DNA of 6,703 nt from the IMG/VR virus record IMGVR_UViG_2534682252_000011; one strand, written 5' to 3'. Below, one piece after another: positions 1-6,703 of the stretch. Under the pieces are notes generated by a model, which was not told the origin of the DNA, did not search any database, and was given only the letters and a program-made list of their open reading frames with translations. This DNA is from a virus. Its lineage: Duplodnaviria > Heunggongvirae > Uroviricota > Caudoviricetes. The position numbers and the translations under genes are program-made. How positions within the stretch are numbered: the first letter of the stretch is position 1; each line of letters opens with the position of its first letter.

Positions 1-159
1 TGATTATGGCATTCAGGCTCTGCTAAAAATGCCAGATAACATTCCGGCCTCCCCTGATTCAGGTTATAAATGACACAATATCTTGACAACACCCGTCACT
101 GTCTGTCAGAAAATATACCGCCAGGCATAAGTATCATGTGAAATCCAACTATCCTTCTG

Positions 160-202
160 AGCCAGCACCTCTCCACCGAAAGTCAGTGCTGGCTGTTTTT
201 TT
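160..202 (+). terminator. Putative intrinsic terminator: 8-9 bp stem (161-168 gccagcac / 186-193 gtgctggc), 17-nt loop, followed by gttttttt
   Basis: Perfect inverted repeat read directly from the sequence, followed by a run of 7 T (196-202). It lies in the flank I do not recognise as lambda. The loop is large for a canonical terminator. Confidence 0.4.
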
Positions 203-429
203 CCTTAATAAAGCATCTGTAACTGGTTGTTGTTCTGCGGGTTCTGTTCTTCGTTGACATGAGGTTGCCCCGTATTCAGTGTCGCTGATTTGTATTGTCT
301 GAAGTTGTTTTTACGTTAAGTTGATGCAGATCAATTAATACGATACCTGCGTCATAATTAATTATTTGACGTGGTTTGATGGCGTAGATGCACGTTGTGA
401 CATGTAGATGATAATTATTATCATTTTGC

Positions 430-436
430 GGGTCCT
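430..436. other. cosQ: cosQ-like element (gggtcct) about 24-30 bp upstream of the cosN nick
   Basis: Position relative to the genome right end (459) matches where I recall lambda cosQ to lie. The exact cosQ boundaries are from memory. Confidence 0.4.
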
Positions 437-459
437 TTCCGGCGATCCGACAGGTTACG

Positions 460-471
460 GGGCGGCGACCT
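460..471. other. cosN: cosN: 12-nt cohesive-end sequence gggcggcgacct; right genome end ...cgatccgacaggttacg ends at 459
   Basis: Exact match to the canonical lambda cohesive end GGGCGGCGACCT, preceded by the canonical right-end sequence. Nu1 starts about 190 bp downstream, as in lambda. Confidence 0.85.
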
Positions 472-504
472 CGCGGTTTTTCACTATTTATGAAAATTTT
501 CCGG

Positions 505-625
505 TTTAAGGCGTTTCCGTTCTTCTTCGCCGTAACCTAATGTTTTTATTTAAAACACCCCCTGAAAAGAAAGGAAACGACAGGTGCTGAAAACGGGCTT
601 TTTGGCCTCTGTCGTTTCCTTTCTC
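505..625. promoter_or_regulatory. cosB: cosB: terminase small-subunit binding region with R3 (cgtttcc 512-518), an A/T-rich tract at the expected IHF site I1 (536-558), R2 (ggaaacg 573-579, inverted) and R1 (cgtttcc 613-619)
   Basis: Three copies of the cgtttcc / ggaaacg core in the R3-I1-R2-R1 order and orientation known for lambda, between cosN and the Nu1 start. I could not identify a clean IHF consensus by eye. Confidence 0.65.
568..624. repeat. 16-bp perfect inverted repeat (568-583 / 609-624) with a 25-bp spacer; the arms correspond to R2 and R1
   Basis: 568-583 agaaaggaaacgacag is the exact reverse complement of 609-624 ctgtcgtttcctttct. Confidence 0.8.
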
Positions 626-648
626 TGTTTTTGTCCGTGGAATGAACA

Positions 649-1194
649 ATGGAAGTCAACAAAAAGCAGCTGGCTGACATTTTCGGCGCGAGTATCCGTA
701 CCATTCAGAACTGGCAGGAGCAGGGAATGCCCGTTCTGCGGGGTGGTGGCAAGGGTAATGAGGTACTTTATGACTCTGCCGCCGCCATAAAATGGTATGC
801 CGAAAGGGATGCTGAAATTGAGAACGAAAAGCTGCGCCGGGAAGTTGAAGAACTGAGGCAGGACAGCGAGACAGATCTCCAGCCAGGGACTATTGAGTAC
901 GAACGCCATCGACTTACGCGTGCGCAGGCCGACGCACAGGAACTGAAGAATGCCAGAGACTCAGCTGAAGTGGTGGAAACCGCATTCTGTACTTTCGTGC
1001 TGTCGCGGATCGCAGGTGAAATTGCCAGTATTCTCGACGGGATCCCCCTGTCGGTGCAGCGGCGTTTTCCGGAACTGGAAAACCGACATGTTGATTTCCT
1101 GAAACGGGATATCATCAAAGCCATGAACAAAGCAGCCGCGCTGGATGAACTGATACCGGGGTTGCTGAGTGAATATATCGAACAGTCAGGTTAA
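649..1194 (+). CDS. Nu1: Terminase small subunit gpNu1 (181 aa), intact
   Basis: 181-aa ORF beginning MEVNKKQLADIFGASIRTIQNWQEQGMPV, an N-terminal helix-turn-helix, with the LRGGGKGNEV segment. Near-identical to lambda gpNu1 as recalled. Sits immediately downstream of cosB and overlaps the A start by 26 nt. Confidence 0.95.
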   Translation: MEVNKKQLADIFGASIRTIQNWQEQGMPVLRGGGKGNEVLYDSAAAIKWYAERDAEIENEKLRREVEELRQDSETDLQPGTIEYERHRLTRAQADAQELKNARDSAEVVETAFCTFVLSRIAGEIASILDGIPLSVQRRFPELENRHVDFLKRDIIKAMNKAAALDELIPGLLSEYIEQSG

Positions 1195-2896
1195 CAGGCT
1201 GCGGCATTTTGTCCGCGCCGGGCTTCGCTCACTGTTCAGGCCGGAGCCACAGACCGCCGTTGAATGGGCGGATGCCAGTTACTATCTCCCGAAAGAATCC
1301 GCATACCAGGAAGGGCGCTGGGAAACACTGCCCTTTCAGCGGGCCATCATGAATGCGATGGGCAGTGACTACATCCGCGAGGTGAATGTGGTGAAGTCTG
1401 CCCGTGTTGGTTATTCCAAAATGCTGCTGGGTGTTTATGCCTACTTCATAGAGCATAAGCAGCGCAACACCCTTATCTGGTTGCCGACGGATGGTGATGC
1501 CGAGAACTTTATGAAAACCCACGTTGAGCCGACTATTCGTGATATTCCGTCGCTGCTGGCGCTGGCCCCGTGGTATGGCAAAAAGCACCGGGATAACACG
1601 CTCACCATGAAGCGTTTCACCAATGGGCGTGGCTTCTGGTGCCTGGGCGGTAAAGCGGCAAAAAACTACCGTGAAAAGTCAGTGGATGTGGCGGGTTATG
1701 ATGAACTTGCTGCCTTTGATGAGGATATTGAACAGGAAGGCTCTCCGACGTTCCTGGGCGATAAGCGTATTGAAGGCTCGGTCTGGCCAAAGTCCATCCG
1801 TGGCTCCACGCCCAAAGTGAGAGGCACCTGCCAGATTGAGCGTGCAGCCAGTGAATCCCCGCATTTTATGCGTTTTCATGTTGCCTGCCCGCACTGCGGG
1901 GAGGAGCAGTACCTTAAATTTGGCGACAAAGAGACGCCGTTTGGCCTCAAATGGACGCCGGATGATCCCTCCAGCGTGTTTTATCTCTGCGAGCATAATG
2001 CCTGCGTCATCCGTCAGCAGGAGCTGGACTTTACTGATGCCCGTTATATCTGCGAAAAGACCGGGATCTGGACCCGTGATGGCATTCTCTGGTTTTCGTC
2101 ATCCGGTGAAGAGATTGAACCGCCTGACAGTGTGACCTTTCACATCTGGACGGCGTACAGCCCGTTCACCACCTGGGTTCAGATTGTCAAAGACTGGATG
2201 AAGACGAAAGGGGATACGGGAAAACGTAAAACCTTCGTGAACACCACGCTCGGTGAGACATGGGAAGCGAAGATCGGCGAACGTCCGGATGCTGAAGTGA
2301 TGGCAGAGCGGAAAGAGCATTATTCAGCGTCCGTTCCTGACCGTGTGGCTTACCTGACCGCCGGTATCGACTCCCAGCTGGATCGCTACGAAATGCGCGT
2401 ATGGGGATGGGGGCCGGGTGAGGAAAGCTGGCTGATTGATCGGCAGATTATTATGGGCCGCCACGACGATGAACAGACGCTGCTGCGTGTGGATGAGGCC
2501 ATCAATAAAACCTATACCCGCCGGAATGGTGCAGAAATGTCGGTATCCCGTATCTGCTGGGATACTGGCGGGATTGACCCGACTATTGTGTATGAACGCT
2601 CGAAAAAGCATGGGCTGTTCCGGGTGATCCCCATTAAAGGGGCATCCGTCTACGGAAAGCCGGTGGCCAGCATGCCACGTAAGCGAAACAAAAACGGGGT
2701 TTACCTTACCGAAATCGGTACGGATACCGCGAAAGAGCAGATTTATAACCGCTTCACACTGACGCCGGAAGGGGATGAACCGCTTCCCGGTGCCGTTCAC
2801 TTCCCGAATAACCCGGATATTTTTGATCTGACCGAAGCGCAGCAACTGACTGCTGAAGAGCAGGTCGAAAAATGGGTGGATGGCAGGAAAAAATAA
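1169..2896 (+). CDS. A: Terminase large subunit gpA, reading frame ends prematurely (575 codons, where lambda gpA has 641 as I recall)
   Basis: GTG start at 1169 giving MNISNSQVNRLRHFVRAGL...; contains VVKSARVGYSK. Roughly 99% identical to recalled lambda gpA until ...EKWVDGRKK, then TAA at 2894-2896. Confidence 0.9.
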   Translation: MNISNSQVNRLRHFVRAGLRSLFRPEPQTAVEWADASYYLPKESAYQEGRWETLPFQRAIMNAMGSDYIREVNVVKSARVGYSKMLLGVYAYFIEHKQRNTLIWLPTDGDAENFMKTHVEPTIRDIPSLLALAPWYGKKHRDNTLTMKRFTNGRGFWCLGGKAAKNYREKSVDVAGYDELAAFDEDIEQEGSPTFLGDKRIEGSVWPKSIRGSTPKVRGTCQIERAASESPHFMRFHVACPHCGEEQYLKFGDKETPFGLKWTPDDPSSVFYLCEHNACVIRQQELDFTDARYICEKTGIWTRDGILWFSSSGEEIEPPDSVTFHIWTAYSPFTTWVQIVKDWMKTKGDTGKRKTFVNTTLGETWEAKIGERPDAEVMAERKEHYSASVPDRVAYLTAGIDSQLDRYEMRVWGWGPGEESWLIDRQIIMGRHDDEQTLLRVDEAINKTYTRRNGAEMSVSRICWDTGGIDPTIVYERSKKHGLFRVIPIKGASVYGKPVASMPRKRNKNGVYLTEIGTDTAKEQIYNRFTLTPEGDEPLPGAVHFPNNPDIFDLTEAQQLTAEEQVEKWVDGRKK

Positions 2897-3095
2897 CTGT
2901 GGGACAGCAAAAAGACGACGCAATGAGGCGCTCGACTGCTTCGTTTATGCGCTGGCGGCGCTGCGCATCAGTATTTCCCGCTGGCAGCTGGATCTCAGTG
3001 CACTGCTGGCGAGCCTGCAGGAAGAGGATGGTGCAGCAACCAACAAGAAAACACTGGCAGAATACGCCCGTGCCTTATCCGGAGAGGATGAATGA
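2897..3095 (+). pseudogene. A: Displaced 3' end of A: LWDSKK still in the A frame (2897-2914), then [59 protein letters not shown] in the +1 frame, ending in the ATGA overlap with W
   Basis: Frame-0 ORF 2880..3095 encodes the expected gpA C-terminus and ends exactly at the W start (atg 3092-3094 / tga 3093-3095). Recovering the ancestral protein needs both readthrough of TAA 2894-2896 and a +1 shift near 2915. Confidence 0.7.
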
Positions 3096-4900
3096 CGCGA
3101 CAGGAAGAACTTGCCGCTGCCCGTGCGGCACTGCATGTACCTGATGTACAGGAAAACGGGTGGCAACGGTTACAGAAAGACGGACGGCGAGTGGAGTTTA
3201 CGACCACTTCCGTGTCTGACCTGAAAAAATACATTGCTGAGCTGGAAGTGCAGACCGGCATGACACAGCGACGCAGGGACCTGCAGGATTTTATGTATGA
3301 AAATCGTCCACCATTCCCACCCTTCGTGGGGCCGGACGGCATGACATCGCTGCGTGAATATGCCGGTTATCACGGCGGTGGCAGCGGATTTGGTGGGCAG
3401 TTGCGGGCGTGGAACCCACCGGGTGAAAGTGTGGATGCAGCCCTGCTGCCCAACTTTACCCGTGGCAATGCCCGCGCAGACGATCTGGTACGCAATAACG
3501 GCTATGCCGCCAACGCCATCCAGCTGCATCAGGATCATATCGTCGGGTCTTTTTTCCGGCTCAGTCATCGCCCAAGCTGGCGCTATCTGGGCATCGGGGA
3601 GGAAGAAGCCCGTGCCTTTTCCCGCGAGGTTGAAGCGGCATGGAAAGAGTTTGCCGAAGATGACTGTTGCTGCATTGACGTTGAGCGAAAACGCACGTTT
3701 ACCATGATGATTCGGGAAGGTGTGGCCATGCACGCCTTTAACGGTGAACTGTTCGTTCAGGCCACCTGGGATACCCGTCCCTCGCGACTGTTCCGGACAC
3801 AGTTCCGGATGGTCAGCCCGAAGCGCATCAGCAACCCGAACAATACCAGCGACAGCCGGAACTGCCGTGCCGGTGTGCAGATTAATGACAGCGGTGCGGC
3901 GCTGGGATATTACGTCAGCGAGGACGGGTATCCTGGCTGGATGCCGCAGAAATGGACATGGATACCCCGCGAGTTACCCGGCGGGCGCGCTTCGTTCATT
4001 CACGTCTTTGAACCCGTGGAGGACGGGCAGACCCGCGGTGCAAATGTGTTTTACAGCGTGATGGAGCAGATGAAGATGCTCGACACGCTGCAGAACACGC
4101 AGCTGCAGAGCGCCATTGTGAAGGCGATGTATGCCGCCACCATTGAGAGTGAGCTGGATACGCAGTCAGCGATGGATTTTATTCTGGGCGCGAACAGTCA
4201 GGAGCAGCGGGAAAGGCTGACCGGCTGGATTGGTGAAATTGCCGCGTATTACGCCGCAGCACCGGTCCGTCTGGGAGGCGCAAGAGTGCCGCACCTGATG
4301 CCGGGGGACTCACTGAACCTGCAGACGGCTCAGGACACGGATAACGGCTACTCCGTGTTTGAGCAGTCACTGCTGCGGTATATCGCTGCCGGGCTGGGTG
4401 TCTCGTATGAGCAGCTTTCCCGGAATTACGCCCAGATGAGCTACTCCACGGCACGGGCCAGTGCGAACGAGTCGTGGGCGTACTTTATGGGGCGGCGAAA
4501 ATTCGTCGCATCCCGTCAGGCGAGCCAGATGTTTCTGTGCTGGCTGGAAGAGGCCATCGTTCGCCGCGTGGTGACGTTACCTTCAAAAGCGCGCTTCAGC
4601 TTTCAGGAAGCCCGCAGTGCCTGGGGGAACTGCGACTGGATAGGCTCCGGTCGTATGGCCATCGATGGTCTGAAAGAAGTTCAGGAAGCGGTGATGCTGA
4701 TAGAAGCCGGACTGAGCACCTACGAGAAAGAGTGCGCGAAACGCGGTGACGACTATCAGGAAATTTTTGCCCAGCAGGTCCGTGAAACGATGGAGCGCCG
4801 CGCAGCTGGTCTTAAACCGCCCGCCTGGGCGGCTGCGGCATTTGAATCCGGGCTGCGACAATCAACAGAGGAGGAGAAGAGTGACAGCAGAGCTGCGTAA
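3092..4900 (+). CDS. B: Fused reading frame: head-tail joining protein gpW N-terminus (about 62 aa, no stop) continuous with portal protein gpB; an intact portal could also start at the internal ATG 3293
   Basis: 602-aa ORF starts [15 protein letters not shown]... (gpW), has the SD ggagagg at 3081-3087, and continues without a stop into [23 protein letters not shown]...[10 protein letters not shown] (gpB). The lambda-position W stop tga (3298-3300) and B start atg (3297-3299) are both out of frame here. In-frame ATG at 3293 with agga at 3285-3288 would give a 535-aa portal. Confidence 0.85.
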
Positions 4901-6202
4901 TCTCCCGCATATTGCCAGCATGGCTTTTAATGAGCCGCTGATGCTTGAACCCGCCTATGCGCGGGTTTTCTTTTGTGCGCTTGCAGGCCAGCTTGGGATC
5001 AGCCGCCTGACGGATGCAGTATCCGGCGACAGCCTGACTGCCGGAGAGGCACCCGCGGCGCTGGCGTTATCCGGTGATGATGACGGACCACGACAGGCCC
5101 GGAGTTATCAGGTCATGAACGGCATCGCCGTGCTGCCGGTGTCCGGTACGCTGGTCAGCCGGACGCGGGCGCTGCAGCCGTATTCGGGAATGACCGGTTA
5201 CAACGGCATTATCGCCCGTCTGCAACAGGCTGCCAGCGATCCGATGGTGGACGGCATTCTGCTCGATATGGACACACCGGGCGGGATGGTGGCGGGAGCA
5301 TTTGACTGTGCTGACATCATCGCCCCGTGTGCGAGACATAAAAACCGGTATGGGCGCTGGCCAACGACATGAACTGCAGTGCAGGTCAGCTGCTTGCCAG
5401 CGCCGCCTCCCGGCGTCTGGTCACGCAGACCGCCCGGACAGGCTCCATCGGCGTCATGATGGCTCACAGTAATTACGGTGCTGCCCTGGAGAAACAGGGC
5501 GTGGAAATCACGCTGATTTACAGCGGCAGCCATAAGGTGGATGGCAACCCCTACAGCCATCTACCGGGTGATGTCCGGGAAACACTGCAGTCCCGGATGG
5601 ATGCAACCCGCCGGATGTTTGCGCAGAAGGTGTCGGCATATACCGGCCTGTCCGTGCAGGCTGTGCTGGATACCGAGGCTGCAGTGTACAGCGGTCAGGA
5701 GGCCATTGATGCCGGACTGGCTGATGAACTTGTCAACAGCACCGATGCGATCACCGTTATGCGTGATGCACTGGATGCACGTAAATCCCGTCTCTCAGGA
5801 GGGCGAATGACCAAAGAGACTCAATCAACAACTGTTTCAGCCACTGCTTCGCAGGCTGACGTTACTGGCGTGGTGCCAGCGACGGAGGGCGAAAACGCCA
5901 GCGCGGCGCAGCCGGACGTGAACGCGCAGATCACCGCTGCGGTTGCGGCAGAAAACAGCCGCATTATGGGGATCCTCAACTGTGAGGAGGCTCACGGACG
6001 CGAAGAACAGGCCCGCGTGCTGGCAGAAACCCCCGGTATGACCGTGGAAACGGCCCGCCGCATTCTGGCCGCAGCACCACAGAGTGCACAGGCGCGCAGT
6101 GATACTGCGCTGGATCGTCTGATGCAGGGGGCACCGGCACCGCTGGCTGCAGGTAACCCGGCATCTGATGCCGTTAACGATTTGCTGAACACACCAGTGT
6201 AA
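4881..6202 (+). pseudogene. C: Capsid assembly protease gpC (S49/ClpP-like), split by a net +2 frameshift at about 5323-5344 into ORF pieces 4881..5372 and 5369..6202
   Basis: GTG start 4881 with strong SD gaggagga (4869-4876) and a 20-nt overlap with the B stop, as in lambda. Frame 0 reads ...GAFDCADIIAPCARHKNRYGRWPTT then stops; the gpC continuation PVWALANDMNCSAGQLLASAASRR... is in frame 2. The ORF-track start at 4746 is inside B and is not the real start. Confidence 0.8.
5597..6202 (+). CDS. Nu3: Scaffolding protein gpNu3 (201 aa), nested in-frame in the 3' part of C, intact
   Basis: Internal ATG at 5597 (MDATRRMFAQKVSAYTGL...) sharing the C stop at 6200-6202. Length and position match lambda Nu3. 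It lies downstream of the C frameshift, so it is unaffected. Confidence 0.75.
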   Translation: MDATRRMFAQKVSAYTGLSVQAVLDTEAAVYSGQEAIDAGLADELVNSTDAITVMRDALDARKSRLSGGRMTKETQSTTVSATASQADVTGVVPATEGENASAAQPDVNAQITAAVAAENSRIMGILNCEEAHGREEQARVLAETPGMTVETARRILAAAPQSAQARSDTALDRLMQGAPAPLAAGNPASDAVNDLLNTPV

Positions 6203-6211
6203 GGGATGTTT

Positions 6212-6544
6212 ATGACGAGCAAAGAAACCTTTACCCATTACCAGCCGCTGGGCAACAGTGACCCGGCTCATACCGCAACCGCGCCCGGCGGATTGAGTGC
6301 GAAAGCGCCTGCAATGACCCCGCTGATGCTGGACACCTCCAGCCGTAAGCTGGTTGCGTGGGATGGCACCACCGACGGTGCTGCCGTTGGCATTCTTGCG
6401 GTTGCTGCTGACCAGACCAGCACCACGCTGACGTTCTACAAGTCCGGCACGTTCCGTTATGAGGATGTGCTCTGGCCGGAGGCTGCCAGCGACGAGACGA
6501 AAAAACGGACCGCGTTTGCCGGAACGGCAATCAGCATCGTTTAA
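6212..6544 (+). CDS. D: Head decoration protein gpD (110 aa), intact
   Basis: [27 protein letters not shown]...AISIV, near-identical to recalled lambda gpD. aaggga SD at 6201-6206; starts 9 nt after the C stop, as in lambda. The ORF-track start at 6206 (MFM...) is probably not used. Confidence 0.95.
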
Positions 6545-6561
6545 CCTGACCCTTCATCACT

Positions 6562-6587
6562 AAAGGCCGCCTGTGCGGCTTTTTTTA
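6562..6587 (+). terminator. D-E intergenic hairpin (stem 6566-6570 gccgc / 6575-6579 gcggc, loop ctgt) followed by a run of 7 T; putative attenuator or RNA-stability element
   Basis: Inverted repeat plus T-run read directly from the sequence. Its function is not known to me, and full termination here would be odd because E is needed in amounts similar to D. Confidence 0.3.
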
Positions 6588-6599
6588 CGGGATTTTTTT

Positions 6600-6703
6600 A
6601 TGTCGATGTACACAACCGCCCAACTGCTGGCGGCAAATGAGCAGAAATTTAAGTTTGATCCGCTGTTTCTGCGTCTCTTTTTCCGTGAGAGCTATCCCTT
6701 CAC
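6600..6703 (+). CDS. E: Major capsid protein gpE, 5' partial (first 35 codons; runs off the window end)
   Basis: ATG at 6600 giving MSMYTTAQLLAANEQKFKFDPLFLRLFFRESYPF, matching the lambda gpE N-terminus as recalled. Confidence 0.9.
   Translation, partial: MSMYTTAQLLAANEQKFKFDPLFLRLFFRESYPF

Follow-up and report, generated by a model that had tools for sequence, protein, structure and literature searches.

The window analyzed here (6,703 nt) is the whole of the draft contig AMTQ01000039.1 (GCA_000302735.1), both of its ends being contig ends. Its left part holds a reverse-complemented spacer of the kind found between the nanS-p esterase gene and the holin gene S (1..225, minus strand), a hairpin followed by a U7 run within that spacer (160..202, plus strand), a joint at 224..225, a 25-codon ORF on the minus strand (183..260) and lambda-type right-end DNA that extends to cosN (225..459, plus strand). 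The last segment comprises the start of ylcI, its upstream region and cosQ; it is 99.1% identical to the right end of phage 434 and 95.8% identical to lambda. The position of cosQ at about 430–436 is deduced from its distance to the end, using the 434 annotation. The cosN site GGGCGGCGACCT can be read directly from the sequence at 460..471 (plus strand), and the 434 record ends at the equivalent of window base 459. According to the ORF list nu1 occupies 649–1194, and the start of terminase A is at 1169. The long palindrome on the cosB side, between cosN and nu1 (563–630), gave chance miRNA-type Rfam matches only. Upstream of the ylcI start, window 295–308 TTGTCTGAAGTTGT fits the CII-site consensus ttgy-N6-ttgy, and the annotators of 434 marked a site of this form 35–48 nt upstream of its ylcI-like gene.

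A preliminary description of the window had placed the beginning of the lambda right end at about 224 and a complete divergence to the left of it. We found lambda-type DNA from base 225 rightwards, with 95.8% identity to lambda and at most 97.7% to other lambda-like phages. Megablast against 50,697 phage records returned 127 with a match to the window; in the lambda-like records that reach the joint the alignment starts exactly at base 225 and none is collinear leftwards, so the divergence is borne out. Bases 1–225 match other DNA, at E values of 1e-92 to 1e-106. In a four-way alignment the reverse complements of 434 and H-19B follow the sequence of the window and Sp4 as far as base 225, beyond which they run on into the esterase-proximal half of the spacer; base 225 (G) is common to both parental sequences and thus represents a microhomology of 1 nt. 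Using a 211-nt probe (window 120–330), the joint was found at 100% identity in 294 of 5,426 complete E. coli genomes, while in the remaining ones one half of the probe matched, with the split always at base 225. Aligned with EDL933, the window shows no difference across the joint, and six IMG/VR contigs carry the joint as well. The joint at 224/225 is a real recombination joint.

The left flank had been described as unrecognized non-lambda DNA. It is indeed not lambda DNA, but it can be recognized: it is the nanS-p/S spacer of Stx-type phages, turned round. Window 1–225 is 98.7% identical to H-19B; for 434 and over 20 Stx1a-converting phages the identity is 93.8%, and all of these matches are to the opposite strand. 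The equivalent sequence in 434 sits between a SASA/NanS-p-type esterase gene and the holin gene S, and H-19B shows the same layout. The likeness to the spacer of these phages includes the annotated terminator; in contrast to them, the orientation towards cos and nu1 is reversed in Sp4 and the esterase-proximal half lies elsewhere.

The terminator consists of a 9-bp G+C-rich stem (160–168/186–194) followed by a G and by U7 at 196–202, in agreement with the hairpin and T7 run noted before at 160–202. Its hairpin (160–194) has a fold energy of -16.3 kcal/mol (z = -3.2 compared to shuffled sequences), is marked as a terminator in the record of phage 434 (OL657226) and is invariant, together with the U-run, in 434, H-19B and Sp4. 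With a G+C-rich stem-loop directly 5′ of a U-run, 160–202 is a predicted Rho-independent terminator; a simple terminator scan missed it because the loop is longer than 8 nt. It was brought in with the inverted block described below. In the window it is directed toward cos, whereas in uninverted phages, such as 434 as its native setting, it is directed against late transcription. As it moved together with the block, its relation to a 90-aa ORF (phrog_1853) that runs antisense between R and S is preserved, and the transcript served by this conserved anti-late terminator may be that of the 90-aa ORF. The substitutions in 434 cluster just upstream of the hairpin (window 115–157, compared to 160–202). 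An Rfam search of bases 1–700 gave nothing relevant, after which a curated sRNA ending at the terminator was dropped as a candidate. A promoter scan of 1–260 yielded no sigma-70-like site on either strand.

On the minus strand the ORF at 260..183 encodes the 25-aa peptide MSTKNRTRRTTTSYRCFIKEKNSQH, as had been read earlier: an ATG at 260–258, 12 codons of a right-end gene and a stop at 185–183. These are codons 1–12 of ylcI/ynfO, followed by 13 out-of-context codons. Residues 1–12 form the N-terminus both of the 64-aa ORF of lambda and 434 and of the 74-aa YlcI/YnfO protein (DUF3950), a variant that is common in E. coli prophages. The ATG of the 64-aa ORF has the same position in lambda, where it lies 199 nt from the right end, and likewise in 434. 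In contrast to the lambda ORF, only 12 codons survive in the window, and the intact gene of the Sp4 lineage would be the 74-aa variant. The DUF3950 domain (residues 21–49 of the intact protein) is missing from the remnant: a Pfam search of the 25 residues gave no match, compared to 70.6 bits for the intact 74-aa relative. The rearrangement leaves cosN unaffected, and since the joint is located 235 nt upstream of cosN, we infer that cosQ, cosN and cosB are untouched.

Bases 1–504 of the window are 99.6% identical to a prophage locus present in many O157:H7 chromosomes, with both mismatches (477 and 483) to the right of cosN. This locus is the prophage CP-933M in EDL933 and Sp4 in Sakai (ECs_1088–ECs_1101); the prophage was reportedly published in 2001. 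Joint, remnant ORF and terminator of Sp4/CP-933M are base-for-base those of the window. From base 505, in contrast, the window follows the prophage Sp8 (99.8%) and not the nu1::ISEc8 of Sp4. The order in Sp4 is Q, tRNAs and esterase gene ECs_1088 (all plus strand), a partly deleted IS629, a C-terminal ylcI fragment ('ylcI, plus), pchA ECs_1091 (minus), Rz/Rz1 (minus), R (minus), the 90-aa ORF (plus) and S ECs_1100 (minus), then 96 nt, the equivalent of window base 1, the joint, ylcI codons 12–1 (minus), cos, nu1 interrupted by ISEc8 (plus) and the terminase. Thus, in both EDL933 and Sakai the plus strand of the locus carries Q, the tRNAs, the esterase gene and nu1, and the minus strand carries pchA, Rz, R and S between them. 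The block of ∼3.5 kb from 'ylcI to the spacer (5732–9224 of the EDL933 locus, L003) is flipped relative to both flanks.

The window stops 96 nt before S, so that only the related complete genomes show the inverted block. In those examined that carry the joint, the next gene leftwards is always the minus-strand holin gene S, 96 nt beyond base 1, and in all related loci examined R, Rz and pchA come next after S, likewise inverted. The upstream neighbour, which had been named as worth inspecting, is therefore the holin gene of the phage itself and points away. The sole accessory gene of the inverted block is pchA, a LEE-island activator of the PerC family. The expectation of cargo near cos holds in the weak sense that pchA lies ∼3 kb away inside the block; a foreign replacement is not what is found. 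The pchA gene (ECs_1091) occupies 7366–7680 of the Sakai locus (L015), corresponding to 5894–6208 of the EDL933 locus.

Base-level comparison recovers both halves of each broken parental sequence, in opposite orientation, at two junctions, which is the signature of a reciprocal inversion. The spacer halves of the EDL933 locus end at ...4658 and run from 9224 to 9001; the ylcI halves lie at window 260–225 and at 5732–5812 of the EDL933 locus. In H-19B the 3′ end of the esterase gene, the spacer and S are contiguous, and this sequence matches the two halves found in Sp4 at 100% and 98.7% identity. To the left of IS629 the match to H-19B is 100% up to ...ATATGCGGAT; H-19B next reads TGTTT CAGTTACAG..., while the window joint resumes with (C)AGTTACAG on the reverse strand. 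It follows from this resumption point that 5 nt (TGTTT) are missing from the spacer. For the other parent, pchA, ylcI and cos are contiguous and uninverted in 654 genomes (best identity 99.6%). Compared to one of these uninverted relatives, ylcI codons 1–12 are located in the window and codons 49–74 (the C-terminal 26) at the far junction, while codons 13–48 (108 nt) are lost, removing the whole DUF3950 domain. The recombination joint that had been proposed is hence a true one and truncates the right-end ORF, but the accessory region has not been replaced: what abuts the lambda-type DNA is the prophage's own inverted spacer.

Between the two parental breakpoint regions no inverted repeat of at least 9 nt was found; therefore the flip was not mediated by pre-existing homology, and an inverted-repeat-mediated inversion, homologous or site-specific, was rejected. 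A switch of the Hin/Gin/Cin invertase type was rejected as well: there are no crossover repeats of this length, the joint is fixed, sequence was lost and the block contains no annotated invertase gene.

The other junction is occupied exactly by an IS629 of 1,073 bp (4659–5731 of the EDL933 locus), which is internally deleted and has both termini intact. In 38 O157 genomes IS629 is missing at this locus and two different small-deletion scars are found, ...GCGGA|ATGAAAA... and ...TCAATAT|TAATTAATG... (about 4755–4765 in L012 and about 4750–4760 in L013), and therefore independent imprecise excisions of IS629 have taken place here. IEE-dependent excision of IS629 leaves adjacent deletions of a few nt to >40 kb, and IEE carries out microhomology-mediated end-joining in vitro (PMC9943667). 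The Sp4 locus resembles the IS629/IEE rearrangements of EHEC (Kusumoto 2011, as far as cited in PMC9943667) in the IS629 at the reciprocal junction, the small and ∼100-nt losses, the 1-nt microhomology and the two independent imprecise excisions at the locus. IEE is documented for excisions and deletions, and no account of an inversion in which one of the joints lacks an IS was found.

In view of the IS at the junction, the losses at both sites, the 1-nt microhomology and the excision at the locus, 224/225 is very probably the cos-proximal end of an IS629-driven inversion of the ∼3.5-kb lysis block in the defective lambdoid prophage Sp4/CP-933M of O157:H7. The ancestral order would have been Q ... 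nanS-p esterase gene, spacer, S, R, Rz, pchA, ylcI (leftward), cos and nu1, and the flipped segment would have reached from the middle of the spacer to the inside of ylcI. After the flip, the S-proximal half of the spacer with its now cos-directed terminator, leftward in the ancestral order, abuts ylcI codons 1–12 beside cos, and the C-terminal 26 codons of ylcI lie beside the esterase gene, with the partly deleted IS629 between them. Two routes could lead there: either a recombination between two IS629 copies in inverted orientation, with the cos-proximal one lost later by excision together with flanking DNA, or an aberrant one-ended transfer of IS629, after which end-joining repaired the break that was left. 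The IS-free joint would have been sealed by microhomology-mediated end-joining of the IEE type, with a loss of 5–8 nt of the spacer and 108–111 nt of ylcI. An IS-free reciprocal left junction would read spacer ...GCGGATTGTTT fused to ylcI codon 13.

A two-IS inversion should show an inverted IS copy at both junctions; IS629 is present at the left junction only and the window joint is IS-free, so the classical form would require that the second copy has since been excised. Searches for intermediates with IS629 at the exact sites (ylcI::IS629, spacer::IS629) were confounded by thousands of IS629 ends and returned unrelated two-piece matches only; an uninverted prophage carrying IS629 at one of the two sites, or a form with two IS629 copies, did not turn up in this confounded search either. 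Since no intermediate was found, the order of events is put forward, like the driving role of IS629, the end-joining seal and the involvement of IEE, as what the present arrangement suggests.

The IS-free state of the window joint, its microhomology of 1 nt and the failure to find an intermediate with a second IS629 would also fit an illegitimate inversion independent of any IS, with IS629 landing at the other junction later by chance. Such a sequence of events is possible, though we consider it improbable: IS629 would have had to land by chance at the reciprocal junction and to remove 5 nt from one flank and 108 nt from the opposite one with both of its termini intact, which makes this course less parsimonious than an inversion driven by IS629. 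Much less probable still is a modular exchange, in which foreign cargo from another phage replaced the accessory region between lysis genes and cos and 224/225 is a module boundary. Lambdoid phages are mosaic, morons are common between Rz and cos and the left flank is non-lambda DNA; however, this flank is the reversed late-region spacer of the prophage itself, followed by the inverted S, R, Rz and pchA, and the C-terminal part that ylcI lacks here turns up at the opposite end of the block in complementary orientation, as an inversion would leave it. Position 224/225 is not the boundary of a moron or cargo insertion. That the joint is an assembly artefact is hardly conceivable. The window is indeed a short draft contig with clustered single-base indels and a switch between Sp4 and Sp8 alleles, but the same joint lies, always in the same context, in 294 genomes finished independently, among them Sakai and the re-sequenced EDL933.

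Judged by their orientation, S, R and Rz, although intact, should be antisense to the Q-dependent late transcript after the inversion, so that lysis would be uncoupled from late transcription. ylcI appears to be destroyed, and pchA would now run against late transcription, unlike its uninverted homologues that adjoin ylcI in other prophages. In an earlier study Asadulghani et al. (2009; PMC2669165) reported the disruption of the Sp4 nu1 by ISEc8 and scored its lysis function as present; the inversion is absent from their text, and our literature search found no text describing an inversion of the Sp4 lysis block. With the lysis genes inverted relative to late transcription, this functional lysis score may be optimistic.

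The inversion could also be read as a rewiring instead of mere decay, in which S-R-Rz became sense to the leftward ylcI promoter region and pchA was taken out of Q read-through, giving a new and possibly CII-responsive control. The hairpin should not interfere with this, as on the minus strand it is preceded by A7 and has no U-run after it and is thus predicted to be non-terminating. A consensus promoter scan gave no minus-strand promoter upstream of the ylcI ATG. We regard such a rewiring as unlikely. If it were true, the lysis genes and pchA of Sp4 would be under a new promoter instead of pR′, and fixation in O157:H7 would mean selection for a non-lytic prophage that carries a regulator. The prophage and this kind of rearrangement are both already known, the former is carried by hundreds of finished O157:H7 genomes, and the case adds little new biology; it corrects the annotation of the left flank, which is not cargo, and offers an example at base resolution of an IS629-associated inversion with an end-joining scar.

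The window, a draft contig, is probably stitched together from two prophages, and its parts should be read with this in mind. It carries Sp4-type alleles at 328 and 360 and Sp8-type alleles at 477 and 483; therefore the switch lies inside 361..476, an interval that includes cosN and is a 116-nt exact repeat, identical in Sp4 and Sp8. Bases 225–6703 are 99.8% identical to Sp8, and true Sp4 diverges completely after 504: Sp8 is followed from base 505, in place of the Sp4-type cosB and the ISEc8-interrupted nu1. A 153-nt pattern of the Sp4/Sp8 hybrid (351–503) had no match in IMG/VR, GTDB representative genomes or JGI metagenomes, and window 1–700 is covered by no complete E. coli genome or phage record. 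The switch is probably an assembly chimera through the 116-nt repeat and is not taken to indicate a different prophage; a real inter-prophage recombinant near cos is the alternative.

Compared to Sp8 the window contains nine single-base indels and five substitutions. All nine indels, together with two adjacent substitutions (a 2-nt swap), cluster at 2894–2915, 3138–3326 and 5323–5340, and the indels break the frames of terminase A (575 aa, compared to 641 in Sp8), W, the portal gene and the prohead protease gene. The contigs of five other draft assemblies end at the equivalent of window 2893–2895, which suggests a branch point of the assembly graph or a repeat boundary, and points to consensus errors, not to real pseudogenes. 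Most simply, the window can be read as a draft contig threaded through repeated prophage DNA and containing consensus errors. A further contig, IMGVR_UViG_2529293045_000024 (L006 1–13117), is either an inter-prophage recombinant or another assembly chimera. It follows Sp4 in reverse through the inverted block and, from the precise boundary of IS629 on, runs into an intact ylcI, followed by cos and a nu1 of another type; therefore the block is flanked there by two inverted cos regions.
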